From: Hydrogenophilales bacterium
GTDB taxonomy: Bacteria; Pseudomonadota; Gammaproteobacteria; Burkholderiales; Thiobacillaceae
Length of the DNA stretch: 64,000 nucleotides
Assembly (NCBI GenBank): GCA_037439465.1
Contig: JBBIVX010000014.1
Span: 7,293-71,292 of the forward strand
Direction: 5' to 3'
A program made the position numbers and the translations under genes. Positions 1-50,671 of the stretch are shown here, piece by piece; positions within the stretch are counted from its first letter, which is position 1, and each line of letters begins with the position of its first letter. The notes under the pieces were generated by a model. The model saw only the letters and a program-made list of their open reading frames with translations, was not told where the DNA came from and searched no databases.

Positions 1-2208
1 ACGTATGCCTTGCAGATCGAGGTGCTCGACCGCAATGGCCGGGTACTGTTGGCGCAGCCGTGGCATATGCGCACCAACCTCTCCCTGTTCAAGGACGCCC
101 AGGGCCGCGAATTTACCCCCGCCTTTTATCTCAACAACGACCGCGTCCCCTTGCTCAGCGCCATCATCCGTCTCAATTTCGCCGGCCTGCCGCCGCCCGA
201 GCGGCTGCGCCTGCGCCTGTTGCGCAAGGACGCGGACATACGCGATGTGGTGGCGCGCGTTTACCTCCCCGAAAAAATCCAGGCGCACAAGATCGGCTAT
301 CTGTGGCAGCGGCTGAGCGAGAAAACGCGGACGGCGCTGGCGGCCGGCAACGTCTATCCGAGCGAGCTGCTGACCGAGGAAGAAAAGCGCGCCCTCATGT
401 TCAACTCCTGGCAGCCCATAGGCCCCAAGGATCGTCACGGCGAGTTGCGCCGCTGGGATTACTACGTGCTGCGCGACAACGAGGGCGAAATGATCGACAG
501 CGCCATCCCCAGCGCCGGGCTGCGTTTTTCCGCCGGGCACTCGGGCATGGTGCCGCTGCCCGAGGAAGGCGGCCGCCTGCGTCTGCATTTCGAGCCCGGC
601 CTCGCCCCCGTCCAGGGCGACATCCGCCTCATGTGGTATGGCAACACGGCCTTCCAGCGCCGGCAGTTCCGGCTGCATTTCGACGGCCGCCCCCTGGACC
701 ATCGTCTCGACCTCGGCGGCGGCCTGCTGGAAATCCTCGCCGATGCCGACCTCAGCGCGCGCCTCTATCTCATCGACAACAAGGGAAAGGAGACCGAGAT
801 CACCCCGGTGCCGCAATACCTGCGCACCTACAGGACCGACCTGGCGCGCCCCATCGAGTACGGCATCCTGCACGTCGCCGCCACCCCCACGCCGATCAAG
901 GTCGATCTGCGCACCCTCACCCCGCCCGAGGACAGCTGGGCGGAGCGCTCCCCGCTACTCGACTATGCCTTGCTCGATCAGGCCGGGAAGGTGCTCAAAC
1001 AAGGCCGCATCGCCATCAGCAAAGCCGACAGCCGCTACGACAGCGTAGTCAACGACTACACCGGCGCGCGTTTGAGCGACCCCTCTACCTACTACTTCCT
1101 GCTGCCGGCCAACGTCGCCAGGCTGCGGCTCCAGGGCGCGTCGGAAGACGCGCCGGTTCTGGTCGCGGTGTCCAGCCGGCCACTCGACCTGCCGCACCGC
1201 TACCGCGCCCCCGAGGACCAGTTCGACTTCGACGCCCTGGGCAAGCGCGTCAGCGCCTGGTTCCCGCTCAAGCCGGAGAACCACGTGCAGTGGCTGGCCG
1301 ACAACGCCAGCGTGCTGCTGACGGTGCAACCGCGCCCGCCCGAGGACAGACCCGAGCTGTTGAGCGGCCGCTATGCCTGGGAGGATTTCCATCCGCTCGG
1401 CGCCTGGAAGGGCCGCCTGTTGCTCACGCCGCAGGAGCCCGGCATGCCATTTCGCAGCGAGGCGCTGCCCGCCAGCTATCAGGAGATCATCCCCAGGCGC
1501 GACACCGCCATCTCCCTGCCATCCTACGAAGGCCTGCGCAGCCTGGCGCCCCGCCTGCTATGGGTGCGGCCGCAGGAGACGCCGGCGTCATTCAGCCTGT
1601 TCGTGGACGGCCGCCCGCACCAACAGGGCCGTCTCGCCGGCCGCCATGGCGAAATACAGCTGCTGCCGCTGAGCGTCGGTCCGCACCGGCTGCGGCTGGT
1701 CAGCGAGGCGGGCGGCAAGTTCTTTCTCAACCACCTCGAACCGCGCTCGCCAGTCTATGTGCAGCGGCTCGCCAACCAACTGGAAAACGCGCTCGACTTC
1801 GTCGTCGCGCGCACCACTTCATGTGCCGAGACCCTCTCGGTGAGTCTCTTCCAGCCCAGCGAGCGGCGTGCCCGCAGCCGCCTCCGGGTCGAGGTGCGCG
1901 GCCCGGCGCCGGCCAGTCTCGCCCCCCTGCCCGCCTGGGTGTTCAGGCTCAGGGAATTCGATGTGCGTCCCGACAGCCGCGACGCCGTCACCGTATTTTC
2001 GGCGCAGGAGGCCCGCACCGATGCCGGACAATCTTTCTACCTGCCTTTCCCTGCGGGCGCGCCCAGGGGGCTGTACCGCATTACCATACGACTGCAAAGC
2101 GGGCCAGGCGGCCACGTCCTGCTGTCGCGCCTGACTCCAGGCGTCAAGCCGACAGAGCGGCTATTGCATGAAAACGATGTCGTCACTTATGAAAACGCAC
2201 AAGACTGA
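1..2208 (+). CDS. Large hypothetical protein, 5' end outside the window; first visible gene of a four-gene operon
   Basis: Frame 1 is open from nt 1 (ORF track 10..2208, 732 aa). No catalytic motif recognised. Sequence looks beta-rich. It carries a module LLPLSVGPHRLRLV that recurs in the downstream giant protein. Its 3' end overlaps the next ORF. Confidence 0.6.
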   Translation, partial: TYALQIEVLDRNGRVLLAQPWHMRTNLSLFKDAQGREFTPAFYLNNDRVPLLSAIIRLNFAGLPPPERLRLRLLRKDADIRDVVARVYLPEKIQAHKIGYLWQRLSEKTRTALAAGNVYPSELLTEEEKRALMFNSWQPIGPKDRHGELRRWDYYVLRDNEGEMIDSAIPSAGLRFSAGHSGMVPLPEEGGRLRLHFEPGLAPVQGDIRLMWYGNTAFQRRQFRLHFDGRPLDHRLDLGGGLLEILADADLSARLYLIDNKGKETEITPVPQYLRTYRTDLARPIEYGILHVAATPTPIKVDLRTLTPPEDSWAERSPLLDYALLDQAGKVLKQGRIAISKADSRYDSVVNDYTGARLSDPSTYYFLLPANVARLRLQGASEDAPVLVAVSSRPLDLPHRYRAPEDQFDFDALGKRVSAWFPLKPENHVQWLADNASVLLTVQPRPPEDRPELLSGRYAWEDFHPLGAWKGRLLLTPQEPGMPFRSEALPASYQEIIPRRDTAISLPSYEGLRSLAPRLLWVRPQETPASFSLFVDGRPHQQGRLAGRHGEIQLLPLSVGPHRLRLVSEAGGKFFLNHLEPRSPVYVQRLANQLENALDFVVARTTSCAETLSVSLFQPSERRARSRLRVEVRGPAPASLAPLPAWVFRLREFDVRPDSRDAVTVFSAQEARTDAGQSFYLPFPAGAPRGLYRITIRLQSGPGGHVLLSRLTPGVKPTERLLHENDVVTYENAQD

Positions 2209-3061
2209 ACTCATGGCGGCGCTGGTGATGGCCGCCCTGGCGCCGACGGTCCAGGCCGACTGGGTGCAGCAACTGGCGGCGGCCAGCAGCGAACGGCATT
2301 TCGTACAGCCCGCCACGGCCGACGTGAAACGGGCGCAGGCGCTCTTTCTGCGGCTCATGCAGGGCGAGCGGGGGGAGGCGCTCGCCAGGGCCTGGTCCGA
2401 ACTCGGTTTCGATCTCGGCAGCGACCCCACGGAAGGACTGACCCTGCTGCGTGAACAGCCCGGCGCACGTCGTGGCCGCGGCTTCTTCGTCTTCCGCCAG
2501 GGCTCAGCCGACGCCTTGCAGATACCGCACGCCTTCAAGGACGCCATGACCGGCCAGATTGGCGTCGCCCTCTTCCGGCAGGGCCGATTCGGCGCCGCCG
2601 CCTGGAATACGGTGCCGCGTGATTTCGTCGCGGACGGCCGGCGCGTCGATGCCGATATGGCGCATCTTGACGACAGCTACTTCACCGCCTTCGCCCGTGC
2701 CAGCGCGCAACGTCACCCGCAAGGCCGAATCTATCAGCTGCACGGGTTCGAGCAGGAAAACCGCCGCAGCGGCGCAGCCAGAAAAGCCGCCGTCATCCTC
2801 AGCGACGGCAGCCGCACGCCCGCGGCCACGCTGCGCCGGCTCGCCGACTGTATCGCCGCCGGCACACGGGCCAGCGTCCTCACCTATCCCGAGGATGTCC
2901 GGGAATTGGGGGCCACCGCCAACACAGTGGCCGCCGCGCTGCGGCGGGAGGGTTTCGCCGGCTTCGTGCACATCGAGATGAGCCGTCAGTTCCGCACCGA
3001 TCTAGCGCAAAGCCCGGCGCGGCTACGGACGCTGCTGAGCTGCCTGGAGGGCGGGGTTTGA
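2168..3061 (+). CDS. Secreted hypothetical protein; weak motif resemblance to poly-gamma-glutamate hydrolase (PghP) / N-formylglutamate amidohydrolase-fold zinc hydrolases
   Basis: 297-aa ORF. Alternative in-frame ATGs at 2177, 2189 and 2213. Signal-peptide-like MKTHKTELMAALVMAALAPTVQA. Motifs IPHAFKDAMTG, YQLHGF and FVHIEMSRQFR resemble, from memory, the PHAGGIE / FHGY / GVQLEIS motifs of PghP-type enzymes. Stop TGA 3059-3061 shares one nt with ATG 3061 of the next gene. Confidence 0.55.
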   Translation: MKTMSSLMKTHKTELMAALVMAALAPTVQADWVQQLAAASSERHFVQPATADVKRAQALFLRLMQGERGEALARAWSELGFDLGSDPTEGLTLLREQPGARRGRGFFVFRQGSADALQIPHAFKDAMTGQIGVALFRQGRFGAAAWNTVPRDFVADGRRVDADMAHLDDSYFTAFARASAQRHPQGRIYQLHGFEQENRRSGAARKAAVILSDGSRTPAATLRRLADCIAAGTRASVLTYPEDVRELGATANTVAAALRREGFAGFVHIEMSRQFRTDLAQSPARLRTLLSCLEGGV

Positions 3062-6000
3062 TGCTGTTGCGCCGGCCGCGTCTGCTCGCCCTGCTGTTGC
3101 TGGGCTGGTCCTGTCTCGCCCAGGGCGAGTTGGATGAAGTCCAGTCGCGTCTGCTGGCGCCCTACGCCCTGCCGCTGCGCTGGGACAACATCGAGGCGGC
3201 GCCGGCCTGGCTCCGTGGCATCCAGCCGGCCTACCGCAAGGACAAGGGCTACCACACCATCCGGCTGGCCGAGGGCGAGTGGACCGAGGTTCACGTCGCC
3301 GCCGGCGAGCAATTGCGCCTCACTGCCGTCGCAGGCACGCTCGCCCAGTCCGACCTGCGCCTCATGGTGGCCAATGGCAGCGGCCTCTATGTCGAGACGA
3401 GCCCGCAGCCGAGCGACGATGGCCGCCACTGGATCATCGGGGCCGGGGCCACATCCGCGTCGGTATATCGCCTGGAGCGCATCGGCCAAGGCCGTGGGCC
3501 GCTGGAAATCGCCCTGTTCGCCTCCCGGCACATCCCCTTGGGCGAGCTGGCGCCGTATCGGCGGGTGCTGCCCCTGCCCGGCCAGGCCGTCTCGCTGCGC
3601 GCTGCCACAGCCGCCGCCGCGCAAACGTATTGGCGGCTGGAAAGCGATCAGCCGGTTGCCCTCAAGGTGACCGGCCCGCGCCGCCTGGCGCTGGACAGCC
3701 GGATGCTTTATCCCGCCAGCGAAAGCGGCCTGCTGCAGTCGTGGCGGGTGCAATGCTGGCTGGACGACAGGCCGCTGCACACCGCCGAGATGGAGAGCAA
3801 CGTCGAATCCATGCAGGAGGTAGTCGTCGATCGGGCGAGCACGGTGGTCAGCCGCGCCGAGCGTTTTTATCTGGAGATACCGTCTGGCGAGCACCGCTTG
3901 CGGCTGCGCGCTTCCGCGCCCTTGCTGGCGCGGCTGCTGGCGCAGGAGTCCACCGATTATCTCTTTCCGGCACTCAACCAGCCGCGCCTCACGGCCGAGG
4001 CGGCACGCGCCGACCTCGACCCGGATGAGGCCGGCCGCAGCAGTTGGCAACGCGGCACGCGCGAGATCGAGGCGGCCGCCATGGCCACCGCCAACGTCAG
4101 CGCCGTCGAGCACGCCGCCCTGCGTCTGGCCATGGATACCCGCTGGCGCGAGGGCGGCAGCGTCGGCGCCGCGCTGTTGGCACAGGCGGCCCTGGCACGG
4201 CCGGAGGATCAGACGCTAGCGGCCCGTGCCCGCCATTTCAGCGGCGCCCATACCTTCTTCCGCGATCTGCTACCCGCGGACAAGACAGAGCCCGCCGCCA
4301 TGGCCTATCGCTGGTTCCGCCTGCCGCACCTGCTGGACCCCGGCCAGGAGGCGCCTAATCTGGTGGTGGCGGCGCAGCACCGGGAGGCGCTGCTCGACCG
4401 ACTGGGCAGCGGTTATTTCATCGCCCTGCCGCCCCGCCGTCCGGCCAGGCCAGCCGCCATCCTGCCGCCTCCAACCGCGCCCATCGCCGCCCTGGAAAGC
4501 GTGCGCGAGGTCATCCAGTTCGAGCCTTATTCCGCCCGCCTCACCCAGGCGGCGCGAGCCCGTCTGCAGGCGCTCGCCCAACGCCAGCAGCCACTGGCAG
4601 GCGGGCGGCTGGAGATTCGCGGTTACACCGCCAGCGACAAGGTCTCGGCCTACAACCAACGGCTTTCGCAACGGCGCGCCACGGTTGTCGCCGAGGCGCT
4701 CGCCGCATTCGGTCTCAAGGCCACGGTGGTCAAGGCGGCGGGACGCGGCAACGCCGACCCGGTGGCCGACAATGCCAGCCGCAGCGGCCGGCAGCAAAAC
4801 CGGCGCGTCGAGCTTACCTGGCAGCCGCCCGCGGTCAGCCCGCCGCCGCCTGTCACGGCTCCGGCGCCACGAGCCGACAGCGCCCGCTACCTGCTACCGC
4901 CGGCCTATGCCCCACGCACACTGCGCCTGCTTGCCTACGGCGCGGACGAGGCCGAATTCTTGCTGCAAGTCGATCAGCAAGCGCCCCGCCGCTTGCGTTT
5001 CGCGCCGCGCGACCGGCTGCCGGATGTGGCCTTCGCCCCCACCCCCGGCGAGGGCGGCCTGCTCTTGCAACGGCTCGGCGGTGATGGGCATGGCGATGGC
5101 AGCCTGAGTCCCGTTTTTGGCCGCCACCGGGTGGCGGCGGCCATGGTCGCCGCCGCCAGCGTCGAGCTGATCTTGCCCGCCGCCAGCCACGAGATTCGCC
5201 TGTGGCGGGCCGCTGCCTCGGCTGGCGGAGTGCGCGTGGCCGTGCAATATCAGGCCGCCGCCGCCTTCCAATTGAGCGAGCGCGAGTTTCTCAGCCTCTT
5301 CGATCTCGACCAGGATAGCGGTCTGCCGCTGCGGCTGGCGCTGCGCGCCGGCTGGCAGGAGACGGACGGCGCCGGCCCGGAACGGCTCGCCAGCCAGTGG
5401 CGGCCGCTGGCGCGGTGGCTGCTGGCGGAATTGCGTCAGGCGGCTGGCGGTGTGCGCGCGCCGACCGCCGCCGAGCGCACATCGCCGGCGGCCGGCGACG
5501 CCGCGCAGCGGGCGCGCGCGGCAGCGGCGCAGGGTCAGTGGCTGCTGGCGCTGGAAGAGTGGGGCCGCGTCTGGTTCGCGCGCAGTCGCCAAGCCGAGCG
5601 CGACGCGGCCGAGTGGGGGCGTATCGACGCCCTCGGCCAGTTGGGCGAGGACTTCATGTATGAACAACTGCTCAAACAGATACTGCTGTTCGACCCTGAC
5701 CCGGAGAAGCGCGGCCACGCCCTCGACAGGCTGGAAAAACACTTTGCCCAGGCCAGCGACGAGGAGGCGCGGCTGCGTCTCTATGCCATTGCCGTGCAGC
5801 GGCAGCCGGACGCCCTGGTCTACTGGCGCAAGCTCACGCAGGCGCTGCTGCAGCAAGGCGAATTCCGTCTCGCCCTGCTGGCCGGCCTGGCCCTGCCGCC
5901 GCGGCAGCGCCCCATCGAGGCGCTGCTCGAAGCGAGCTGGCGCCTACGCTGGTGGCAGACCTTCGACCGCCTGCGTGTCGATCTCGAAGACGCCGAACGC

Positions 6001-8754
6001 CGCGCCTTCTGGCAAGGGATGCGGGCCATCGCCGCCGATGAGTTCGAGACGGCGCGGCGGCATTGGCGTGCCGCCGGCAACGATGGACGCGTCTACGCCG
6101 ATCATCTCGCCCGCGCACTGGCCTTGCGCCAGGCGATGGAACGCGCCCCCCGCCTCGGCGCCGAAACCCGCGAACGCTGGGCCGAATGGCAAAGTCAAGC
6201 GCCCGGCCCGCACCGCTGGCGTGACGCGCCCGAATACGTCAGCGATTTCGCCGGCGCCCTGTCCGGTTACGCCATCGACCGCGACCTGCATTTCTCTCTC
6301 TACAAGGCCAGCGCGGAACGGCCGCTGCGCCTGACCGTGACCGGCCCCGCCCGGCTGCGCCTGGAGGCGCGGCCCATACACGCCTCGGCCACTGGCGGGA
6401 ACCTGGAGGGCTGGCTCACGGCCCGGTCGGCGCAGGGGCTATGGGTGGCCCCCATCATCGCCAACCAGGCCAACACCGCACTGCAACTGGCCGACGGCAC
6501 CTGGGTCGGGCGCAAGGTCGCGCTGGATATCCCGGTGGCGGCCGGCCGGCAGTCCATCGAGGTTGCCGCCGGCGCGCTGGCGATCGCCGTGCGCGTCTAT
6601 GTCGAGCAGCCGGCCCTGCCCCTGGGCGCGCTGCCAGCGCCGCCCTGGCTGGAAGCCGACGATCGCCAGGCCGAACGGCTGAGCTTCGAACCCGTCGAGT
6701 CGACCTGGCTGCGCCCTTGCGAAGGCTGCCTGATCGTCCCGGACGGCGATCCGCAGCAACCCTCGCGGCGATACCGCCGGGTGATTTCGCCATCGCCGCC
6801 GCCGGCGCCTCTAGCCGAGGCCCCGGTCGCCGAGCATGAGGCCCGGCTGCTGGCGGAGGGCGATTTCGACCGGCTGCTCGCCGGGCTGCCGCTGACCCCA
6901 GCCCCGCCCGGCGAGGTGCTCAAACGCCTGATCTGGCTGCTGTGGATCGCCGAGACCTCGCCGCCTCATGGCGAGCGGGCACTCGCCGCCGGTCAGGCCC
7001 TGGCCGCCGCCAACCCCGGCGTTGCCGGCCTGGCGCGCCTAAACGATCGGCTGACGCGCAACAGCGGCTGGAGCGCCCAGGAGATCGCGCAGGAAAGCGC
7101 CGGCACGCGCCTGCTGCCGGTCGCCGGCTGGCAGCCGGAAAGCCCGTCTGCGCGCCTGCAGAAGGCGCTGTTGCCGCCGCTGGCGGACGACGAACAGGTC
7201 ATCGGCGGTCATACCCGCCTGCTGCTTTCACTGCGCCACGGCAAAAAGGGCTGGATCGATTTCGCGCTGAGGCCGGAGGATCTCGGCGGTCTGCCGCCGC
7301 AAGCCATGCAGGTCGCCGTGCAGCGTGACGGTGAGGCGCCGCGCTTCATCACCCTGGCGCCTGATGATGACTGGCAGACGCATCGCCTGGACATGCCGGC
7401 AGGTCATCATGCCTTGCGTTTCTGGCTGCCGAGCCCGGTGGCCAACCAGCTGCTGCGCCTGCGGCTGCGTGAGCGCCGCGGCCAGGCCATCGTCCAACAA
7501 TTCGAGCGGCCGTACCAGATCGCCACCGCCGCACAGCCGCTGCGCGCCCTGCTGCCGGGGCCGGCCTGGCTGCGCGTGGACGAGTGGCGCGCCGGCCAGA
7601 CACACAGCCGCTACCAGCTTTTGTCCGGGCCCTGGCAGACCGTCACCTTGATGCCCGCCGCCGGTCAGCGCGAAGCGCTGTTCCGCCTGCACCTGCGTAG
7701 CACGGCGCCAGCCCGGCCGGTGGTGCCGCCGCGTCCCCTCGTCAGCGCAACGCTGGCCGTGCCGCCCCCACCGCTCCGTCTCGACGCCCAGGTCGTGCCC
7801 GCCAGCATGCATCTGGCCGATGCCTTTGCCTTGGGCGGCCAGGAAGACGGCACCTGGACGGTGGCGGCCGGCGCGCATTCCCGCTATGACGCCGACAGCG
7901 ATGCCGCGGAAAAATACATCGAGGGCACGCTCACACATCGCTACTACGACCCGGCACGGCGGACCTATTTCACCACGCAGGGCCTGCTGCGCCTGCGTGC
8001 GGCCGGCGACCCGACACTGGGACTGACGGTGCGCGCCGACCGGCACCTCGCCCACTGGCCGCTCGACGCCTTCGCCGAGGGCAGCGTCCATGCCCAGACC
8101 CTGCCCTTCGTCGGCAACGACTGGTCCGCCCATCTCAAGGCCGGCCTCAGCCAGCACCGCGACATCGACCCCATGACCTGGCATACGCCCTGGCTGACGG
8201 CCTATGCGCGCCAAACGGGGGCCGGCGACGCGCTCAGCCCCGAAAGGGTGGACCAGGACATCCACACCCGCTACCAGGCGCAGCACCGCTTCGGTTACGA
8301 GATCGGTGACCGCCTGAGCTACCGCCCGTGGCTGGACAGCCTGTTGCAGACCGGCCTCGGTGTCACCAGCAACCAGAATCTGGTGACGCCCGACAAGGCG
8401 CGCCTGACGGTGCGGTGGCAACAGTTGCTGGGCCGCTGGCAGGCCGATGCGCACGCCGCCTGGACACATTATTTCGACGATGCCGACCGCGTCAGCGCCC
8501 TCGACCGGCGCGAGCTCGGCCTGCGCCTCGCCTGGGAAGGCTGGCGGCCCAACCAGGATCGCCTGGAGCTTCTCTTCGATCTCACCCATCACTTCGACGC
8601 CGGCTTCACCTCGGGCTGGCTCGGCCTGAGCTGGCATCTGGAACACGGCCGCGGCTACCGCGACTGGCCACCCGGCACGGTCGATTTCCGCGATCTCAGA
8701 CAACGCAATCTGCCCGATCGCCCCAACAACCGCATCGAGGCCGGCGAGCCATGA
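3058..8754 (+). CDS. Giant secreted envelope protein (about 1898 aa): beta-sandwich-like modules, internal OmpA-like peptidoglycan-binding domain, helical repeat region, C-terminal putative outer-membrane beta-barrel
   Basis: One uninterrupted ORF; TTG at 3058 or ATG at 3061. Signal peptide MLLRRPRLLALLLLGWSCLAQGE. OmpA_C-like block LEIRGYTASDKVSAYNQRLSQRRATVVAEAL...NRRVELTW. Helical Ala/Leu/Arg/Trp-rich block of roughly aa 820-1060. The last roughly 330 aa are rich in alternating aromatic/polar beta-strand patterns (GLRLAWEGW, LELLFDLTHHF, GWLGLSWHLEHG). Confidence 0.75.
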   Translation: MMLLRRPRLLALLLLGWSCLAQGELDEVQSRLLAPYALPLRWDNIEAAPAWLRGIQPAYRKDKGYHTIRLAEGEWTEVHVAAGEQLRLTAVAGTLAQSDLRLMVANGSGLYVETSPQPSDDGRHWIIGAGATSASVYRLERIGQGRGPLEIALFASRHIPLGELAPYRRVLPLPGQAVSLRAATAAAAQTYWRLESDQPVALKVTGPRRLALDSRMLYPASESGLLQSWRVQCWLDDRPLHTAEMESNVESMQEVVVDRASTVVSRAERFYLEIPSGEHRLRLRASAPLLARLLAQESTDYLFPALNQPRLTAEAARADLDPDEAGRSSWQRGTREIEAAAMATANVSAVEHAALRLAMDTRWREGGSVGAALLAQAALARPEDQTLAARARHFSGAHTFFRDLLPADKTEPAAMAYRWFRLPHLLDPGQEAPNLVVAAQHREALLDRLGSGYFIALPPRRPARPAAILPPPTAPIAALESVREVIQFEPYSARLTQAARARLQALAQRQQPLAGGRLEIRGYTASDKVSAYNQRLSQRRATVVAEALAAFGLKATVVKAAGRGNADPVADNASRSGRQQNRRVELTWQPPAVSPPPPVTAPAPRADSARYLLPPAYAPRTLRLLAYGADEAEFLLQVDQQAPRRLRFAPRDRLPDVAFAPTPGEGGLLLQRLGGDGHGDGSLSPVFGRHRVAAAMVAAASVELILPAASHEIRLWRAAASAGGVRVAVQYQAAAAFQLSEREFLSLFDLDQDSGLPLRLALRAGWQETDGAGPERLASQWRPLARWLLAELRQAAGGVRAPTAAERTSPAAGDAAQRARAAAAQGQWLLALEEWGRVWFARSRQAERDAAEWGRIDALGQLGEDFMYEQLLKQILLFDPDPEKRGHALDRLEKHFAQASDEEARLRLYAIAVQRQPDALVYWRKLTQALLQQGEFRLALLAGLALPPRQRPIEALLEASWRLRWWQTFDRLRVDLEDAERRAFWQGMRAIAADEFETARRHWRAAGNDGRVYADHLARALALRQAMERAPRLGAETRERWAEWQSQAPGPHRWRDAPEYVSDFAGALSGYAIDRDLHFSLYKASAERPLRLTVTGPARLRLEARPIHASATGGNLEGWLTARSAQGLWVAPIIANQANTALQLADGTWVGRKVALDIPVAAGRQSIEVAAGALAIAVRVYVEQPALPLGALPAPPWLEADDRQAERLSFEPVESTWLRPCEGCLIVPDGDPQQPSRRYRRVISPSPPPAPLAEAPVAEHEARLLAEGDFDRLLAGLPLTPAPPGEVLKRLIWLLWIAETSPPHGERALAAGQALAAANPGVAGLARLNDRLTRNSGWSAQEIAQESAGTRLLPVAGWQPESPSARLQKALLPPLADDEQVIGGHTRLLLSLRHGKKGWIDFALRPEDLGGLPPQAMQVAVQRDGEAPRFITLAPDDDWQTHRLDMPAGHHALRFWLPSPVANQLLRLRLRERRGQAIVQQFERPYQIATAAQPLRALLPGPAWLRVDEWRAGQTHSRYQLLSGPWQTVTLMPAAGQREALFRLHLRSTAPARPVVPPRPLVSATLAVPPPPLRLDAQVVPASMHLADAFALGGQEDGTWTVAAGAHSRYDADSDAAEKYIEGTLTHRYYDPARRTYFTTQGLLRLRAAGDPTLGLTVRADRHLAHWPLDAFAEGSVHAQTLPFVGNDWSAHLKAGLSQHRDIDPMTWHTPWLTAYARQTGAGDALSPERVDQDIHTRYQAQHRFGYEIGDRLSYRPWLDSLLQTGLGVTSNQNLVTPDKARLTVRWQQLLGRWQADAHAAWTHYFDDADRVSALDRRELGLRLAWEGWRPNQDRLELLFDLTHHFDAGFTSGWLGLSWHLEHGRGYRDWPPGTVDFRDLRQRNLPDRPNNRIEAGEP
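4501..4821 (+). other. OmpA-like (OmpA_C / MotB-type) peptidoglycan-binding domain embedded in the giant protein
   Basis: VREVIQFEPYSARLTQAARARLQALA...LEIRGYTASDKVSAYNQRLSQRRATVVAEALAAFGL...GRGNADPVADNASRSGRQQNRRVELTW. This matches the classic N-x2-L-S-x2-RA and NRRVE signatures. Confidence 0.75.
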
Positions 8755-20533: not shown

Positions 20534-20583
20534 CTCTTTTCTTGGCGACGAGTCACCGCGTGAGAAGTGACGCGCCGCACCGT

Positions 20584-20628
20584 GCGCGCACCCTGCGCGC
20601 TGGTCATTGTCACTTTGTCACCTGTCAC
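20584..20628 (-). promoter_or_regulatory. Intercistronic element between PFOR and rnfC: 7-bp GC hairpin plus four tandem (G/T)GTCA(C/T) hexamers
   Basis: GCGCGCA-CCC-TGCGCGC at 20584-20600. Then ggtcat, tgtcac, tgtcac, tgtcac at 20602, 20608, 20616 and 20623 (6-8 nt spacing). All lie in the 111-nt gap between the PFOR stop and the rnfC start. Confidence 0.4.
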
Positions 20629-20644
20629 TTGGTCTCGGCCTTTA

Positions 20645-25591
<4,947 letters not shown>

Positions 25592-25649
25592 TTCCCATCC
25601 TTTTTGATAAGCACCAGATTCTGCAAATCCTGTCGCCGCGTCCAGTGTT

Positions 25650-26531
25650 TCAGCCTTCACTCAGCAGCGGCAGCGGCGTAATACGTATGATCTTCTTGGC
25701 GGCCCTGCCCCTGGCGGCCTGGTCACCCTCCAGCCAAACGATGGCTCCGGTCGGACAGCGTTCGATGGACCTGGCGGTGGCCAGCGCATTGCGGCCATAG
25801 TCGATGGTCGCCAGTTCGTTCTCGACCTTGATCAAACCCGGCGCCGAATCGACCGCGCACTTGCCGCAGGCGGTACAGGCGACTTCGCACAGCCGCTCGG
25901 CGGTATCGCCGTCGGCGTGGTTCTTACAGGCAACCCACAGCTTGTGGGAGAGGGGGTGCAGGGAAAACAGGCCCTTCGGGCAGACCACGACGCAATCGCC
26001 GCAGGCCGTGCACTTGTCCGTGTCCACCTCCGGCAGACCGTACTGGTTCATGCGAATAGCGTCGAAATCGCAGACCGCCTCACAATCACCCAGACCCAGG
26101 CAGCCCCACACGCAGGCCTTGCCGCCGCCGCCAACGGTGGCGGCGGCGCGACAGGTTGCCAGGCCGTCGTAATGGGCACGCAGGCGTGCCACGTGCTTGC
26201 CGCCGGCGCAGGCGAGACGTGCCACCCGCTTTTCCACATCGCCGGCCGCGACGCCCAGGAAGTCGGCGATATACCCCGTCATTTGCGGTGGGCTGACGGT
26301 GCACTTGGCCGGCATGATCTTGCCTGCCACCAGTTCCTCGGCAAAATTGCGGCAGCCTGCGGTGCCGCAGGCGCCGCAATTGGACTTGGGCAGCAACTCT
26401 TCGACCTGGGCAATGCGCGGATCCTCGTAAACATAGAGCCGCCTGTTGGCCACCGCCAACAGCCAAGCCAGCAGCCCCCCCAGGGTCGCCATGAAAAGGC
26501 CCGCCAACGTCACGCCAACTATCGTATCCAT
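25650..26531 (-). CDS. rnfB: Rnf electron transport complex subunit B (polyferredoxin)
   Basis: 293 aa. N-terminal helix. CGACGTAGCRNFAE. Additional clusters CTACGDCVVVCP and CTACGKCAV. Confidence 0.88.
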   Translation of the reverse strand: MDTIVGVTLAGLFMATLGGLLAWLLAVANRRLYVYEDPRIAQVEELLPKSNCGACGTAGCRNFAEELVAGKIMPAKCTVSPPQMTGYIADFLGVAAGDVEKRVARLACAGGKHVARLRAHYDGLATCRAAATVGGGGKACVWGCLGLGDCEAVCDFDAIRMNQYGLPEVDTDKCTACGDCVVVCPKGLFSLHPLSHKLWVACKNHADGDTAERLCEVACTACGKCAVDSAPGLIKVENELATIDYGRNALATARSIERCPTGAIVWLEGDQAARGRAAKKIIRITPLPLLSEG

Positions 26532-27732: not shown

Positions 27733-28389
27733 CTACTCACTTTCGTAGAAAATATCGGCACGACGATTCTCCGCCCAGGAGGCTTCATCATGTCCCTTCA
27801 ACCTGGGCTTGAGTTCGCCCCGGCTCTTTACCAGCACCTGCCTTCCCGGAGCGCCGCGCTCGACCAGGCCGGCACGCACGCTCTGTGCCCGCTTGAGGCC
27901 GAGGCGCCGGTTGTGTTCACGACTGCCGCGCTCGTCGGCATGACCCTCGATGCGCACACGCGCGGCGGGGTGTTCGCGCAGATAGCTGGCATGCGCCTCG
28001 ATGACCGGGTCATAGTCGCGCCGGAGCGCAAACTGATCGAGTGCGAAATAGAAGCTGCGCTCCGAACGCAAATGCGCCGCGAGATCCTTGGAAGCCTGCA
28101 GAGTGGCGGTGTCCGCCTCGGCGGCAGCGGAGTCAGCCGGAGCGGGCCGCGCAACGACGGACGGAGAAACAGTTACGGCGGCCGGAGCAGGCAGCGCCTG
28201 GGCGGCCGGGGCAGGACTCAATGGTGCCGCCGCGGCCGTCTTGGGCGCGCGCCCGTAGTAAAGATCGCGATGGACCTTCAGCGGCCCATGGGCGCCGGCC
28301 GCCTCTTTGCCGACGCCCACTGGCATGGCGCAGGCGGCAAGCAATAGCGGCGGCGTGAGCAGAACGGCAACGAACACACCGAAGCGCAA
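27733..28389 (-). CDS. OmpA-family lipoprotein, Pal-like peptidoglycan-associated protein
   Basis: 218 aa. Lipobox LLLAAC. Ala/Pro-rich linker. OmpA_C domain FALDQFALRRDY...RIEGHADERGSREHNRRLGLKRAQSV...NRRADI. Confidence 0.85.
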   Translation of the reverse strand: MRFGVFVAVLLTPPLLLAACAMPVGVGKEAAGAHGPLKVHRDLYYGRAPKTAAAAPLSPAPAAQALPAPAAVTVSPSVVARPAPADSAAAEADTATLQASKDLAAHLRSERSFYFALDQFALRRDYDPVIEAHASYLREHPAARVRIEGHADERGSREHNRRLGLKRAQSVRAGLVERGAPGRQVLVKSRGELKPRLKGHDEASWAENRRADIFYESE

Positions 28390-28402
28390 GGCGGCGCCCC
28401 GG

Positions 28403-29845
28403 TCAGCGTAACGACACTTGCACCGAATAGGCGCAGAGCGTCATCAGCGGTTGCGGCAGAATGCCAAGCAGAAGCACGGCAAGGCCGTTGGCGGAAAGCA
28501 GCAGACCGGCATCGGCCACGCCCACCGGACGTTCGCTGACGGCGGGCGTGTCGAAGTACATCAGTTTGACGATACGCAGATAAAAGAAGGCGCCGATCAG
28601 GGAGAACATCACCGCCACGACCGCCAGCCAAAGCCAGCCGGCACCTATCAGGGCCTGCAACACGGTCAGTTTGGCGACGAAGCCGATGAATGGCGGCAAG
28701 CCGGCCATCGACAGCATCAGCATGGCCATCACCGCGGCGAGCCAGGGGTGCCTGGCATTGAGACCCTTGTAGTCTTCCAAATTATCGGCCTCGAAGCCGA
28801 CCCGCGACAGGTAGATCACCATGCCGAACCCCCCCAGGCTCATCAGCACATAGCTGACGGCATAGAACATGGCGGCGGAATAACCCGCCAGGCTGCCGCT
28901 CATCAGCCCGAGTAGCAAGAAGCCCATGTGCGAGATGGTCGAATAGGCCAACATGCGCTTGATATTGGTCTGCATGATGGCGGCCAGATTGCCTATGGCC
29001 AGCGAGGCCACCGCCATCACCGCCAGCATTTGTTGCCAGTCGCCGTAGGCCGGCTGCAATCCGTCCACCAAGAGGCGCATGGCAAAGGCAAAGGCAGCCA
29101 GCTTGGGGGCCGAGCCGACGAACAGGGTCACCGCCGTGGGGGCGCCGTGGTAGATGTCCGGCACCCACATATGGAATGGCGCGGCGCCCAGCTTGAAACC
29201 AAGCCCGGCGACGATGAAGACGATGCCGAACACCAGCACCATCTCGCTCCTGACACCGCCATGCACCATCTCGGCCACCTTGGCCAATTCGAGCGAGCCG
29301 GCCAGGCCATAGAGCAGCGACATGCCATAAAGCAGCAGACCGGAGGCCAGTGCGCCGAGCACGAAGTACTTCATGGCCGCCTCGGAAGCCTGCATCGAAT
29401 CGCGCTCCATGGCGACCATGGCATAAAGAGCGAGCGAGAGCAGTTCCAGACCCAGGTAGAGGGTGAGGAAGTGGCTGGCGGAAATCATCACCAGCATGCC
29501 GAGCACGGCGAACAGCAGCAGAGAAAAATAATCGCCGCCCAACATGCCGCGGTCGGTCAGGTACTGACGCGAATAGATCACCGCGACGATGGCGGCCAGA
29601 CAGGTGAGCAGCTTCAGCACGATGCCCATCGGATCGCTGATGTAAAGGCCGTTGAAGGCCAGGGTCGGGGCCGCCGGGCCGGTGGCGACGATCAATGCGG
29701 CGGTGCAGACGAGGCCGAGCAAGGTCAGCGCATAAGATGCCGTTTTCGATTGGCTATAGGCCTCCACCAGCAATACCAGAGAGGCGAAGGCGAGTAGGCC
29801 GATTTCCGGCAGGGCGATGAAGAAATCGATGGCGGCAGGGGTCAT
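28403..29845 (-). CDS. nuoN: NADH-quinone oxidoreductase subunit N
   Basis: 480 aa polytopic antiporter-like subunit. Last gene of the nuo series. Confidence 0.92.
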
Positions 29846-29854
29846 GGCCGAGGC

Positions 29855-31348
29855 TCAGTACACGAGTTTGCTGTGAGCGACATGCCCCAGCAGGTTGTTG
29901 ACGGAGGCGTGCATCACGTCAGTGACGGGCAGGGGGTAGAGGCCCATCGCCAGAACGCAGACGGCCAGCAGCAGCAGCACCACGAATTCACGGCTGTCGA
30001 TGTCCTTAAGCGCGGCCACCTTCTCGTTGGCCACCTTGCCGAAGATCACCCGCTTGTACATCCACAGGGTATAAGCAGCGCCGAAGATCAAGGTAAGACC
30101 AGCGGCGAAGGCCCACCAGAAATTCACCTGGATCGCCCCCAGTATCACCATGAATTCGCCAACGAAACCGGAAGTCCCCGGCAGACCCGAGTTGGCCATC
30201 GCGAACAGCATGAAGAGCGCGGCGAACCTGGGCATGGTATTGGCCACGCCGCCATAATCGGCGATCTGGCGGGAGTGGATACGGTCATACATGACGCCTA
30301 TGCAAAGGAACAAGGCGGCCGAGACGAAGCCGTGCGAGATCATCTGCACCAGGCCACCCTCGATGCCCAGCGGGTTGAACAGGAAGAAGCCGAGGGTAAT
30401 GAAACCCATGTGGGCGATCGACGAATAGGCGATGAGTTTCTTCATGTCCGCCTGCACCAGCGCCACCAGGCCGATATAGACGATGGCGATGAGGGACAGC
30501 GCCACAATCAGCCAGGTCAACTCGTGCGAGGCATCCGGCACGATGGGCAGGGTGAAGCGCAGGAAACCGTAGGCGCCCACCTTCAGCGTGATCGCCGCCA
30601 GCACCACCGAACCGCCGGTAGGGGCCTCGACGTGGGCATCCGGCAGCCAGGTATGCACCGGCCACATCGGCACCTTGACCGCGAAGGCGAAGAAGAAGGC
30701 CACGAACAGCAGCACTTGCGCCATCATGGTGAGACCGACCTTGTGCCACGCGAGTATTTCGAAACTGCCACCGCTGACGAAGAACAGGTAGATCATCGCC
30801 ACCAACATGAGCAGCGAGCCAAGCAGCGTGTACAGGAAGAACTTCATGGCCGCATAGACCCGGTTTGGGCCGCCCCACATGCCGATGATCAGATAGAGGG
30901 GAATCAGCATGGCCTCGAAGAAGACATAAAACAGCACGCCGTCGAGGGCGACGAAGACGCCATTGATCAGTCCCGACTGAATGAGGAAGGCCGCCATGTA
31001 CTGTCCGACCTTAATCTTGATCACCCGCCAGCCTGCCAGTATCACCAGCACGGTGGTAAAACTGTTGAGCAGGACGAAGGGCATGGCGATGCCGTCGACG
31101 CCCAGGTGATACCAGATGTTGAAGGCAGGGACCCAAGCCGCCGTTTCCTCGAACTGCATGGCGGCACTGCTGGCGTCGAAACCGGTCCACAATGGCACCG
31201 ACACGCCGAAGCCGAGCACCGCGCCGATGAGTGCCAGGGTGCGCTGACCATCGGCGTTGCGATCGTCGCTGCCGGTGGCGAGTATCAGCAGCCCGGCCAC
31301 GATGGGCACCCAGACGGTCAGGCTTAAGATTCCGATTCCTTCAAGCAT
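29855..31348 (-). CDS. nuoM: NADH-quinone oxidoreductase subunit M
   Basis: 497 aa antiporter-like subunit. VPMWPVHTWLPDAHVEAPT motif. Confidence 0.93.
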   Translation of the reverse strand: MLEGIGILSLTVWVPIVAGLLILATGSDDRNADGQRTLALIGAVLGFGVSVPLWTGFDASSAAMQFEETAAWVPAFNIWYHLGVDGIAMPFVLLNSFTTVLVILAGWRVIKIKVGQYMAAFLIQSGLINGVFVALDGVLFYVFFEAMLIPLYLIIGMWGGPNRVYAAMKFFLYTLLGSLLMLVAMIYLFFVSGGSFEILAWHKVGLTMMAQVLLFVAFFFAFAVKVPMWPVHTWLPDAHVEAPTGGSVVLAAITLKVGAYGFLRFTLPIVPDASHELTWLIVALSLIAIVYIGLVALVQADMKKLIAYSSIAHMGFITLGFFLFNPLGIEGGLVQMISHGFVSAALFLCIGVMYDRIHSRQIADYGGVANTMPRFAALFMLFAMANSGLPGTSGFVGEFMVILGAIQVNFWWAFAAGLTLIFGAAYTLWMYKRVIFGKVANEKVAALKDIDSREFVVLLLLAVCVLAMGLYPLPVTDVMHASVNNLLGHVAHSKLVY

Positions 31349-31378
31349 CGCGTATTCCCGAGCGTTTCATTCTTGAGG

Positions 31379-33382
31379 CTAGACGAACCAGGTCGCCAGC
31401 AGGGCCACGCCGATGATCATGGCGAAGGCGTAGTGATAGATGTAGCCCGATTGCAGGTGACGCACCATGCCGGCCACCTGCGCCACCACACGCACGGAGC
31501 CGTTCACCAGCAGGCCGTCGATGGCGGTGACGTCACCCCAGCGCCACAGCCGGCCACCCAGCAGACGGGCGCCGCCGGCGAAGAACCAATCGTTGAAATC
31601 GTCGAAGCCGTACTTGCGCTCCAGGATGGTGTAGACGAGGCCTGCCTTGCGGCGCAGCTTTTCCGGCAGGTCCTTGCGCACCAGATAGAGGAACCAGGCG
31701 CTGACGACGCCTGCCAGCGCCAACCAGAAAACCGGGGTCGCGAAGGCGTGCAGGACCATGGCGCCGGCACCGTGAAACTCGGCCTTCAGCTCTCCCATGG
31801 CTGGATGGACGGTATGGTTGACGGTGATCGCCGAGCCGAAGAAATCACCATACAGCATGGGCTCGATGTAGGCCCAGCCGGCATAGACCGAGGGTATGGC
31901 AAGCAGCACCAGGGGCAGCCACACCACCCACGGCGACTCGTGCGGGGCGCTGTGGCCGCCGCGATGGTGGCCATGGCTGTCGTCGTCCTTGCCGCCCTCC
32001 TGATCCTGGCCGGCATGGGCCTGGTGGAACCGCTCCTTGCCATGGAATACCAGGAAATACAGGCGGAAGGAGTAGAAGGCGGTAACGAACACGCCGGCGG
32101 TCACGGCGAAATCGGCGAAGCCCGCACCCCACAGAGGCGAGGCATGCACCGCCTCGATGATCGAATCCTTGGAGAAGAAACCGGAAAACCCCGGGGTGCC
32201 GATCAGGGCCAGGGAACCGATCAACATGGTGATCCAGGTGATCGGCATGTATTTTCTTAGCCCGCCCATGTTGCGGATATCCTGGTCGTGGTGCATGCCG
32301 ATGATGACCGAGCCGGCGGCCAGGAACAACAGCGCCTTGAAGAAGGCGTGCGTCATGAGGTGAAAGATCGCCGCCGAATAGGCCGAGGCCCCCAGAGCCA
32401 CGGTCATGTAGCCGAGCTGGGACAGGGTCGAGTAAGCGATCACCCGCTTGATGTCGTTCTGGATCATGCCCAAAAAGCCCATGAACAAGGCGGTGATGGC
32501 GCCGATGATCAGGACGAAGGAGAGCGCCGTATCGGATAGTTCGAACAGCGGCGACATGCGCGCCACCATGAAGATACCGGCCGTCACCATGGTGGCGGCA
32601 TGGATCAGGGCGGAGATGGGGGTCGGGCCTTCCATCGAATCGGGCAGCCAGACATGCAATGGGAACTGGGCCGACTTGCCCATGGCGCCGATGAACAGCA
32701 GGATGCAGATCACCGTCATGAGCGACCAGCTATGGCCCTCGATCAGGGTGATGCTATGGCTGGCGAGTTGCGGTGCGGTCTGGAACACCTGGGCATAGTC
32801 GAGGCTACCGAACCAGGCCAGCACCAGGCCGATACCGAGCAGAAAACCAAAGTCGCCCACGCGGTTGACCAGGAAGGCCTTGAGGTTGGCATAGATGGCC
32901 GACTCGCGGGCGAACCAGAAACCGATCAACAGATAGGACACCAGGCCGACCGCCTCCCAGCCGAAGAACAACTGCAGGAAGTTGTTGCTCATCACCAGCA
33001 TCAGCATGGAGAAGGTGAACAGCGCGATATAACTGAAGAAGCGCTGGTAACCTGGGTCGTCGGCCATATAGCCGATGGTGTAGACATGCACACACAGCGA
33101 CACGAAAGTCACCACCAACATCATCACGGCGGAGAGACGGTCGATGAGGAAACCCACCTCAAGGCGCAGGTCACCGGCCATCAGCCAGGTGTAGACCGAA
33201 CCGTTATAGGTATTGCCGGCGAGCACATCCTGGAAGATGCTGAGCGAGGCCAGGAAGGCCACCAGCACACCAAGGATGGCCATGGTGTGTGCGCCGGCGC
33301 GGCCGATCTGCTTGCCGAACAGGCCGGCGACGATAGCGCCGGCCAGGGGAGCCAGGGGGACGATGAGATAGAGGGTTTTCAT
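31379..33382 (-). CDS. nuoL: NADH-quinone oxidoreductase subunit L
   Basis: 667 aa. GKSAQFPLHVWLPDSMEGPTPISALIHAATMVTAG. Long C-terminal amphipathic arm. Confidence 0.93.
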   Translation of the reverse strand: MKTLYLIVPLAPLAGAIVAGLFGKQIGRAGAHTMAILGVLVAFLASLSIFQDVLAGNTYNGSVYTWLMAGDLRLEVGFLIDRLSAVMMLVVTFVSLCVHVYTIGYMADDPGYQRFFSYIALFTFSMLMLVMSNNFLQLFFGWEAVGLVSYLLIGFWFARESAIYANLKAFLVNRVGDFGFLLGIGLVLAWFGSLDYAQVFQTAPQLASHSITLIEGHSWSLMTVICILLFIGAMGKSAQFPLHVWLPDSMEGPTPISALIHAATMVTAGIFMVARMSPLFELSDTALSFVLIIGAITALFMGFLGMIQNDIKRVIAYSTLSQLGYMTVALGASAYSAAIFHLMTHAFFKALLFLAAGSVIIGMHHDQDIRNMGGLRKYMPITWITMLIGSLALIGTPGFSGFFSKDSIIEAVHASPLWGAGFADFAVTAGVFVTAFYSFRLYFLVFHGKERFHQAHAGQDQEGGKDDDSHGHHRGGHSAPHESPWVVWLPLVLLAIPSVYAGWAYIEPMLYGDFFGSAITVNHTVHPAMGELKAEFHGAGAMVLHAFATPVFWLALAGVVSAWFLYLVRKDLPEKLRRKAGLVYTILERKYGFDDFNDWFFAGGARLLGGRLWRWGDVTAIDGLLVNGSVRVVAQVAGMVRHLQSGYIYHYAFAMIIGVALLATWFV

Positions 33383-33383
33383 G

Positions 33384-33689
33384 TCAGCCCTTCAATCGGT
33401 CGAGATCATCGACATTGATGCTCTTCAGGTTGCGGAACAGCACCACCAGTATGGCCAGGCCGATGGCCGACTCGGCCGCCGCCACGGTGAGGATGAAGAA
33501 GACGAAAACCTGCCCCGCGGTATCGTTGAGGAAATGCGAGAAGGCGATGAAGTTGAGGTTCACCGCCAGCAGCATGAGTTCGATGGCCATCAGCAGCACG
33601 ATGAGATTTTTGCGGTTGAGAAACACCCCCAGCACACCGATGGCGAACAAGATGGAACCGAGGATCAGATAGTGGTCGAGGCCGATCAT
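33384..33689 (-). CDS. nuoK: NADH-quinone oxidoreductase subunit K
   Basis: 101 aa with three TM helices. [14 protein letters not shown] and [13 protein letters not shown]. Confidence 0.92.
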
Positions 33690-34303
33690 TCGTCCTCCTC
33701 CTCTTTGTATTCGGGCTTCTGGGGCTTCAGGTTGACGAGGCGGATGTGGCCGGCGGCACTCTGCCGCACCTGCCAGGCGACATCCACGACCTTGCGGTTG
33801 GCCCGCCGGCGCAGGGTCAGAGCGATGGCGGCGACGATGGCCACCAGCAGGATCACAGCCGCCAGCTCGAAGGCATAGACATAATCTGTGTAAAGCAGCA
33901 GGCCCAATTGTCTGGTATTGCTAAAACCGGCTGGCGTCGGCGCCGGCGCTGTCAGGCCGAAGCGGTCGCCACCCAGCACCATGACCATCTCCACAGCCAT
34001 CAGGCCGGCGACCAGTGCGGCCAGCGGCAGATAGTCCCAGAAGCCCTGGCGCAACTCTTCGACATTGATGTCGAGCATCATCACGACGAATATAAACAGC
34101 ACCATCACGGCCCCGACGTAGACCAGCACCAGGGTGATGGCGAGAAACTCTGCCTGCAGCAGTATCCAGATGCCGGCGGCCGTGAAGAAGGCCAGCACCA
34201 GCGCCAGGGCGGCATGCACCGGGTTCTTGGCAGTAACGACGCGCAACCCCGCGAGCAGCAGGATGGCGGCGAAGAAGTAGAAAACGAAACTGGCGAAATC
34301 CAT
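33686..34303 (-). CDS. nuoJ: NADH-quinone oxidoreductase subunit J
   Basis: 205 aa. [23 protein letters not shown] and [16 protein letters not shown]. Confidence 0.9.
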
Positions 34304-34313
34304 GTGTCGTCCG

Positions 34314-34805
34314 TTAACGGTATTTGGCGTCGGCGGCCTTGTCCTCGGCGATCTGGGCCTCGTACTTGTCGCCTACCGCGAGGAGCATCTCCTTGGTGTA
34401 ATAGAGGTCGCCCCGTTTCTCGCCGTGATACTCGAAGATGCGGGTTTCGACGATGGCATCGACCGGGCAGGCCTCTTCACAAAAACCGCAGAAAATGCAC
34501 TTGGTCAGATCGATGTCGTAGCGGGTGGTGCGGCGGGTGCCATCCTCGCGCTGGGCCGACTCGATGGTGATCGCCATGGCCGGACAGACGGCCTCGCACA
34601 GCTTGCAGGCGATGCAGCGCTCCTCACCGTTGGGGTAGCGACGCTGCGCATGGAGGCCACGGAAGCGCGGACTTTGCGGCGTGCGCTCATCGGGATACTG
34701 GATGGTGATCTTGCGTGCGAACAGGTGCCGGCCGGTAACCGCCAGGCCCTTGAGCAGCTCGATCAGCAGGAAGGTATTGAAGAAGCGTTTGATAGCGGAA
34801 ATCAT
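34314..34805 (-). CDS. nuoI: NADH-quinone oxidoreductase subunit I
   Basis: 163 aa. Two 4Fe-4S motifs, [12 protein letters not shown] and [12 protein letters not shown]. Confidence 0.94.
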
Positions 34806-34815
34806 CCTCGCCTCC

Positions 34816-38186: not shown

Positions 38187-38187
38187 A

Positions 38188-47951: not shown

Positions 47952-47972
47952 GTCGCCCCTTTTGCACTCAAT

Positions 47973-48002
47973 TTTCCGGCGGCTGGAGAGGCCGTCCGGA
48001 AA
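47973..48002. terminator. Hairpin between convergent genes (possible bidirectional terminator)
   Basis: TTTCCGGCGGC-TGGAGAG-GCCG(T)CCGGAAA with one bulged T. Flanked by A/T on both sides. Confidence 0.45.
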
Positions 48003-48027
48003 GGCAGCGCGGAGGCCACGGTCCGGC

Positions 48028-49332: not shown

Positions 49333-49334
49333 GG

Positions 49335-50645: not shown

Positions 50646-50671
50646 CAGGTAATGGTCAATCACCCCATCCC

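Follow-up and report, generated by a model that had tools for sequence, protein, structure and literature searches.

Poly-gamma-glutamate is a capsule and biofilm component as well as an industrial polymer, and the genes for its synthesis occur in many Gram-negative phyla. AlgK and AlgE are a split version of a scaffold-plus-porin design. In BcsC, PgaA, and PelB, an alpha/alpha-repeat domain is fused to the porin in one protein (PMC9384988). The accepted polyglutamate system, comprising CapB and CapC with optional CapA and CapE, has no outer-membrane part (PMC5542703). Here we describe a candidate for such a part in a 64,000-nucleotide stretch of DNA (the window) from a Hydrogenophilales bacterium, whose nearest public loci are 78-92% identical. 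It is a very large secreted protein (hereafter the giant), encoded directly upstream of a ligase with a PgsB-like domain of the Mur-ligase family. Because the operon layout mirrors synthase-dependent exopolysaccharide systems and the accepted polyglutamate system lacks an outer-membrane part, the giant is proposed as the exit porin. On balance, if only by a little, we lean towards the view that the giant serves a synthase-dependent export system as its outer-membrane porin and periplasmic scaffold, the cargo being a polyglutamate-like polyamide.

The open reading frame (ORF) listed at 3058..8754 (+), with a TTG start at 3058, is confirmed as real. The ATG at 3061 is the likelier start, giving a protein of 1897 amino acids (aa), since this codon has GGAGG 10 nt before it and shares bases with the TGA of the preceding gene at the junction GTTTGATG, and since the public gene call is also 1897 aa. 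At the other end, the stop codon (8752-8754) overlaps the ATG of the ligase gene (8751) as ATGA. Thus, the giant is translationally coupled on both sides, and the same start/stop overlaps surround it in distant loci. The sequence-only reading that preceded this analysis had already claimed coupling to the ligase, and the ATGA overlap bears this out. It had also proposed a signal peptide, which is upheld by the N-terminus MLLRRPRLLALLLLGWSCLAQG/ELDEV, signal-peptide-like on inspection, and by comparable N-termini in all 23 family proteins found first (the window protein and 22 homologues). A lipoprotein signal was considered and dismissed: GWSC is not a lipobox, and its Cys varies across homologues, hence the giant is not a lipoprotein.

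Domains were modelled with AlphaFold2 (AF2) from shallow family alignments of 14-19 sequences; the C-terminal model covers aa 1180-1897 (19-sequence alignment, mean predicted local distance difference test score, pLDDT, of 79). The features of the giant, with the evidence for each in brackets, are the following.

3061..8754 (+): giant gene, 1897 aa plus stop (end-to-end alignment with 22 homologues of 1689-1943 aa)
3061..3126 (+): signal peptide, about aa 1-22, of Sec/SPase I type without lipobox (inspection; model helix at aa 8-19)
3175..3531 (+): N-terminal beta-sandwich, aa 39-157, opening with LPLRWDN (AF2 pLDDT 84-93; invariant columns)
3559..3945 (+): beta-sandwich module A, aa 167-295, bearing VTGPRRLALDSR and LEIPSGEHRLRL (hhalign, AF2, motifs)
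3994..4425 (+): mainly helical domain, aa 312-455 (AF2, lower confidence)
4504..4824 (+): OmpA-like alpha/beta domain, aa 482-588, an accessory insert in which the Asp of GHTD is replaced by Ala (GYTA) (Pfam, AF2/Foldseek)
4882..5253 (+): beta-sandwich module C with inserted helices, aa 608-731, bearing LILPAASHEIRL (AF2, motif)
5401..6195 (+): alpha/alpha-repeat (TPR-like) solenoid of about 14 helices, aa 781-1045 (AF2 pLDDT 82-93)
6211..6612 (+): beta-sandwich module B, aa 1051-1184, bearing VTGPARLRLEAR and ALDIPVAAGRQSIEV (hhalign, AF2, motifs)
6826..7056 (+): short helical domain, aa 1256-1332 (AF2)
7063..7473 (+): beta-sandwich module D, aa 1335-1471, bearing LDMPAGHHALRF (hhalign, AF2, motif)
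7498..7704 (+): small beta-sandwich, aa 1480-1548, with a conserved GPAWLRVDEW motif (alignment, AF2)
7852..8640 (+): predicted 14-stranded outer-membrane beta-barrel, aa 1598-1860 (AF2, Foldseek, hydropathy)
8641..8751 (+): conserved 37-aa C-terminal tail (GRGYRDW..DFRDLRQR..NNR) after the last strand (family alignment, AF2)

The barrel is modelled as 14 long strands, in a block with pLDDT mostly 80-96. A Foldseek search against PDB placed OmpG first (E 7.6e-8, target-normalised template-modelling (TM) score 0.70 over about 270 columns, identity 12%), and further matches included Occ porins, FapF, the autotransporter barrels of EspP and NalP, CdiB, and PelBC, of which the autotransporter barrels match more weakly (TM 0.36-0.41) and PelBC stands at rank 48 (TM 0.39). 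The C-terminal beta-barrel that the sequence-only reading had suggested therefore stands as a prediction, given the 14 modelled strands and the match to OmpG. In addition, family-averaged hydropathy shows hydrophobic/polar alternation in nearly every strand, the periplasmic-side turns are short (4, 4, 1-2, 2, 2, and 5 aa) and the outer-side loops measure 6, 5, 7, 24, 8, 9, and 4 aa, while the lipid face of the strands is rich in aromatic and aliphatic residues and has few charges. All of these properties fit an outer-membrane barrel with a periplasmic N-terminus. The polar face carries about 30 charged residues, with 15-24 Lys/Arg versus 7-15 Asp/Glu and a mean net charge of +4.2, a composition that would suit an anionic polymer. 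The last strand ends G-L-S-W-H-L (family consensus W-H-F) and is followed by the 37 conserved residues, whose family form is GRGYRDFRPGxxDFRDLRxR..NNR; AF2 models this tail with low confidence, and it may serve as a plug or as a docking peptide.

A low-confidence linker lies between module B and the short helical domain in the AF2 model, and a proline-rich linker separates the small beta-sandwich from the barrel. The solenoid gives weak Foldseek matches to the AspH TPR domain; a Pfam scan of the giant returned no TPR match, and the Pfam and NCBIfam scans together gave OmpA models only. Two other sets of Foldseek matches were set aside as noise: Cry toxin and Tc toxin, the top matches of the N-terminal model, reach a TM of about 0.1 and reflect multi-domain noise, and the FimD usher matches to the C-terminal model reach 0.17. 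The best-conserved motif of the family, Y.LPLRWDN.E (aa 35-45; 3163..3195 (+)), stands directly after the signal peptide, farthest from the barrel, and is a candidate contact with inner-membrane partners.

Three other operon genes lie wholly or partly in the window, with the giant between the second and the third.

1..2208 (+): 3' part of the upstream gene, which runs off the window start; its product is about 835 aa in relatives, with an N-terminal signal or anchor and beta-sandwiches related to module A
2168..3061 (+): small secreted protein of up to 297 aa, starting somewhere at 2168-2213; its stop overlaps the start of the giant
8751..12902 (+): ligase, 1383 aa; HEAT repeats and a single hydrophobic helix, then a PgsB-like Mur-ligase-family domain at aa 702-1038 and an extension at the C terminus (Pfam, NCBIfam)

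The operon ends at 12902 and is followed by nadA on the opposite strand. Its order is constant in three relatives (79% to 27% identity), where it reads: sensor histidine kinase (sometimes with a response regulator), a PgsC/CapC fusion of about 1070 aa, the upstream protein (about 800 aa), the small secreted protein (about 280 aa), the giant, and the ligase. Across 28 loci from GTDB species representatives, found with a profile of 10 closer sequences, the giant lies between the two upstream genes and the ligase wherever the contig extends far enough. The PgsC fusion would be encoded before the first base of the window and is thus seen in relatives only: Pfam CapC (cut-off 27) gives 149.5 bits for a 1082-aa protein in locus L001, which is 79% identical, and 126.8 bits for L002, and the NCBIfam PgsC match in relatives reaches 62.6 against a cut-off of 96.45. 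In L001, the upstream protein has 835 aa (5917..8424). By simple hydropathy, the PgsC fusion and the ligase are assigned to the inner membrane, and the upstream protein, the small protein, and the giant each have a signal or anchor. The related operons contain no CapD or CapE that we could see, those examined contain no glycosyltransferase, and the conserved operon encodes no second candidate outer-membrane protein; in one distant locus, a PGA_cap (CapA) protein adjoins it.

The ligase is the better conserved partner, at 40-55% identity compared with 25-38% for the giant. It scores 200.6 bits against the PgsB model TIGR04012 (cut-off 222.7), covering profile positions 3-325 of 380, and a search of its ligase domain against PDB sequences found nothing. 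About 690 aa of HEAT repeats without a signal peptide precede its lone hydrophobic helix, which lies about 15 aa before the Mur-ligase P-loop; a PgsB-like topology would make the HEAT region periplasmic, which is hard to square with the absent signal peptide. The small secreted protein has a set of invariant residues (H121, D125, T128, R151, D163, Q190, H192, G193, R199, N252, H268, E270, and R276) that looks like a metal or active site, making it a candidate periplasmic enzyme. It matches no Pfam family, PDB sequence, or phage protein. A role as a PghP-like polyglutamate hydrolase was set aside as speculative, as just one of 16 members gave a Pfam match (E 0.18), with no PDB or phage support.

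The OmpA-like block in the middle of the giant bears on its orientation. The sequence-only reading had located an OmpA domain there rather than at a terminus, and the block does pass the family hidden Markov model: Pfam OmpA (PF00691) reaches 57.7 bits at aa 488-582 (cut-off 27.2), over profile positions 2-98 of 98, and many NCBIfam OmpA-type models match the same block. Its best PDB sequence matches are YiaD (1.6e-13) and OprF (4.3e-13), and its AF2 fold superposes on OprF-C, YfiB, Pal, and AbOmpA with TM 0.76-0.82 and a root-mean-square deviation of 2-3 Å, at 30-34% identity to solved OmpA-like domains. In the family alignment, 10 of the 23 proteins carry an insert of 133-155 aa at this place and the other 13 a linker of 5-12 aa; among the 143 full-length members gathered, 22 have the insert, always at one fixed site, and 85% lack it. 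On these counts, the OmpA block is accessory and does not define the family. Most inserted copies retain the canonical GHTD...LSxRRA, and 14 of the other OmpA-bearing members keep HTD, whereas in the window protein and its nearest relatives the Asp of GHTD is replaced by Ala (GYTASD or GHTASD) and the Arg of LSxRRA is retained. The window protein thus has the Arg but not the Asp of the conserved pair that characterises OmpA-like domains. In Acinetobacter baumannii OmpA, this Asp and Arg (Asp271/Arg286; PDB 3TD5) hold the diaminopimelate of the stem peptide, and the Asp-to-Ala change makes peptidoglycan binding by the window protein uncertain. Canonical OmpA-type domains at the same site in other members argue that the N-terminal 1580 aa are periplasmic. 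The idea that a single chain spans from the outer membrane to peptidoglycan is accordingly retained in part: signal peptide, predicted barrel, and OmpA domain do occur in one protein, but the insert is optional and its Asp is lost here.

The predicted periplasmic part also contains beta-sandwich modules, some of which appear to be duplicated. All motif strings quoted in the sequence-only reading were located in the proteins. Three strict copies of the first motif exist, as it had claimed, at aa 271, 703, and 1443, although the pattern as it was literally written holds one surplus "x", and the one that fits is [LI]x[LIM]Px[GAS]xHx[LI]R[LF]; the second motif, VTGPxRLxL[DE]xR, does occur twice (aa 203 and 1093). 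Neither pattern had a match in 20,000 shuffles of the giant, both patterns being post hoc. In the models, the motifs mark beta-sandwich modules. BLASTP of the giant against itself and against the upstream protein gave no significant off-diagonal matches, whereas hhalign profile-profile comparison, run between slices of the 23-sequence family alignment and the full alignment, matched module A (190-295) to module B (1080-1170) with a probability of 97% (E 6.5e-11) and to module D (1381-1460) with 86% (E 5e-6). The repeats are therefore detectable at the profile level only, and internal duplication is supported at that level. By these comparisons, homology among A, B, and D appears solid, and that of module C is weak, its match to D (600-720 as the C slice) reaching 17% only, which is not significant. 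Module A also matches the upstream protein at aa 274-385 (89%, E 2e-6) and, at 63%, the stretch that holds LLPLSVGPHRLRLV; a sub-threshold BiPBP_C match at that motif is all that Pfam gives for the upstream protein. Modules common to the two proteins thus have moderate support, so that the proposed duplication and sharing hold for A, B, and D, less so for C, and moderately for the upstream gene.

The family is large. A word-indexed search returned 23 proteins only, named "OmpA family protein" or "hypothetical", whereas 1030 representatives at 50% identity (E <= 1e-3), 636 of them with E <= 1e-30, emerged when the C-terminal 718 aa served as the query of an exhaustive profile search. Full-length matches to the profile are nearly all 1600-2080 aa long, with the matched part at the C terminus. 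Carriers include Hydrogenophilales, Sulfuricellaceae, Nitrosomonas, Accumulibacter, Chromatiaceae, Zetaproteobacteria, Nitrospirota, Pirellulaceae, and Verrucomicrobiales, as well as the cultured Aromatoleum evansii KB740, Desulfocicer vacuolatum DSM 3385, and Desulfobacter latus AcRS2, so the family spreads over Proteobacteria, Nitrospirota, Desulfobacterota, Planctomycetota, and Verrucomicrobiota. The family profile found nothing among PDB sequences, and in the literature, with subscription journals outside our coverage, we found neither the operon nor any polyglutamate exporter of the outer membrane described.

In the mechanism that we infer, which includes the localisation of the giant, the periplasmic orientation of its N-terminal part, its function as a pore, and the chemistry of its cargo, an inner-membrane synthase made of the downstream PgsB-like ligase and the upstream-encoded PgsC/CapC fusion would polymerise the product. 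The giant would be exported by Sec, and its C-terminal 14-stranded barrel would insert in the outer membrane as the exit pore. The roughly 1580 aa left in the periplasm, namely six beta-sandwich modules, helical regions, and the alpha/alpha-repeat solenoid, would take over the growing chain as a scaffold or guide. Where the OmpA-like domain is inserted, in the minority of lineages to which that of the window belongs, it would tie this scaffold to peptidoglycan. The sequence-only reading had imagined a conduit for the product of the ligase, an idea that fits the PgsB-like ligase, the PgsC/CapC fusion, and the alpha/alpha-repeat domain, with export itself being our inference.

Several points weigh against the giant as a polymer porin. 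The architecture, repeats, conserved operon, and translational coupling are computational results, as is the whole case. The structures are predictions from those shallow alignments, and with a predicted TM score (pTM) of just 0.43-0.45 the models inform single domains and do not fix their placement relative to one another. Moreover, the lumen has only a slight net positive charge, the protein ends in the conserved 37-aa tail instead of an aromatic residue, and this tail could plug the pore. The giant has no detectable sequence homology to BcsC, PgaA, PelB, or AlgE in Pfam, NCBIfam, or PDB profile searches and no Pfam TPR, and its barrel of 14 strands is smaller than the 16-18 of the exopolysaccharide porins. 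Some of these points would be accommodated if the giant were an outer-membrane-anchored periplasmic scaffold or regulator, with a barrel that only anchors, as in OmpA, and modules that organise, measure, or attach a polymer, for example by tethering it to peptidoglycan, while the polymer exits elsewhere or stays periplasmic. The OmpA-like insert of the window protein, a tail able to occlude the barrel, the many CBM-/Ig-like beta-sandwiches, which suggest binding over transport, and the strand number below that of known polymer porins all speak for this. We nevertheless regard it as unlikely, because an OmpG-like 14-stranded barrel with about 30 inner-face charges exceeds the needs of an anchor, the conserved operon offers no alternative outer-membrane candidate, and the OmpA insert is missing from most of the family. 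The barrel might also translocate the N-terminal 1580 aa to the surface in the manner of a type V autotransporter, with the modules serving as an adhesin or matrix-binding passenger for the polymer; EspP and NalP translocator domains, FapF, and CdiB are indeed among the Foldseek matches, a proline-rich linker precedes the barrel, and repeated Ig-/CBM-like modules resemble adhesin passengers. This is very improbable, since the best match is the 14-stranded OmpG and the autotransporter barrels score lower, the AF2 model has no helix running into the barrel pore and none preceding it, and the would-be passenger holds a 265-aa solenoid and, in 22 members, an OmpA domain with the canonical motif, which are periplasmic features.

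The nature of the cargo needs to be weighed as well. As the ligase falls below the PgsB cut-off, its polymer need not be poly-gamma-glutamate, and a CapA/PgsA domain was not detected in the closest complete operon; both points count against a polyglutamate-like export system. It is conceivable that the operon has nothing to do with secreted polyglutamate, and that the Mur-ligase-family enzyme builds or modifies another envelope component (a peptidoglycan-linked peptide or other amide-linked polymer) with the giant as a structural, envelope-spanning protein. Apart from the ligase score relative to the PgsB equivalog cut-off and the nearest operon's lack of a detected CapA domain, this would be in line with the large extra domains of the ligase (HEAT repeats and C-terminal extension), the PgsC match of relatives under its NCBIfam cut-off, and a small secreted protein that matches no known family. 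Yet the Pfam CapC match reaches 149.5 bits against a cut-off of 27, the PgsB match spans 323 of 380 profile positions, the pairing of CapB with CapC is the accepted signature of polyglutamate synthesis (PMC5542703), and a PGA_cap (CapA) protein adjoins one distant operon. We therefore consider such an unrelated envelope role quite unlikely and retain the export of a polyglutamate-like polyamide as the favoured reading.

Other parts of the window contain features of separate interest. A 334-aa protein at 14149..15153 (-) has at its end a sorting motif of the IPTL-CTERM type (Pfam PF18203, 47 bits), which implies a dedicated exosortase-type sorting system in the organism. At 20645..25660 (-) lies a gene for a 1671-aa single-polypeptide 2-oxoacid:ferredoxin oxidoreductase (POR_N, PFOR_II, POR, TPP_enzyme_C, and ferredoxin domains), and the long ORF opposite it at 20567..23776 is probably spurious. 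A strong positive AT skew of 0.18-0.28 at 28000..38200 coincides with a minus-strand nuo (NADH:quinone oxidoreductase) operon with NuoG, NuoL, and NuoM/N-type matches, and is probably due to T-rich membrane-protein coding sequence on the other strand. Finally, a cluster at 46242..58074 includes an asparagine-synthase-like gene (46242..47951), a beta-helix protein (48028..49842 (-)), an FG-GAP/ASPIC protein (54044..56062), and, after the latter, a 695-aa ORF without a family (55987..58074), and may be another envelope or exopolymer locus.

Compared with known systems, the giant resembles BcsC, PgaA, and PelB in that a signal peptide, a predicted periplasmic alpha/alpha-repeat scaffold, and a predicted C-terminal barrel are found in one chain, and in that a polymer synthase of the inner membrane and accessory proteins of the periplasm are encoded in its operon. 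It differs from them in a scaffold that is mostly six beta-sandwich modules, with a single solenoid of about 265 aa and an optional OmpA insert. Moreover, its partner synthase is an ATP-dependent amide ligase of the PgsB/PgsC type and not a glycosyltransferase, thus the cargo is predicted to be a polyamide. As in CapBCA(DE)/PgsBCA(E) of Bacillus and others, the gene for a PgsB-like ligase accompanies one for a PgsC/CapC-like membrane protein, but here very large extra domains are attached to each of the two enzymes, bringing their total lengths to 1383 aa and about 1080 aa, and three further operon genes, that of the giant among them, encode secreted proteins. The predicted barrel has the same strand number as OmpG, the 14-stranded monomeric porin of E. 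coli and its best structural match; OmpG is a stand-alone sugar porin, whereas the barrel of the giant makes up the final 15% of a 1897-aa chain, with a conserved tail behind it. The insert shares the fold and the LSxRRA Arg of OmpA-like domains such as the OprF C-terminal domain, YiaD, YfiB, Pal, and MotB, but sits mid-protein and has Ala for the GHTD Asp. In contrast to a classical type Va autotransporter, with its 12-stranded barrel, pore helix, and beta-helical passenger, the giant combines 14 strands with beta-sandwiches, an alpha solenoid, and OmpA.

In summary, the giant family is large, conserved, and strictly linked to a synthase, which makes it a concrete candidate for the missing step of crossing the periplasm and the outer membrane. 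We tentatively propose, at a confidence that falls a little short of even, that the six-gene operon is an unrecognised trans-envelope polyamide secretion system and that the giant family is a new class of outer-membrane polymer translocon, independent of the BcsC, PgaA, PelB, and AlgE porins and the first outer-membrane exporter for a non-ribosomal polyamide. If this is true, about 1000 large hypothetical proteins and five operon partners would gain an annotation, and the design of an alpha/alpha-repeat scaffold joined to a beta-barrel porin, as in BcsC, PgaA, and PelB, would have arisen independently for a polyamide cargo.

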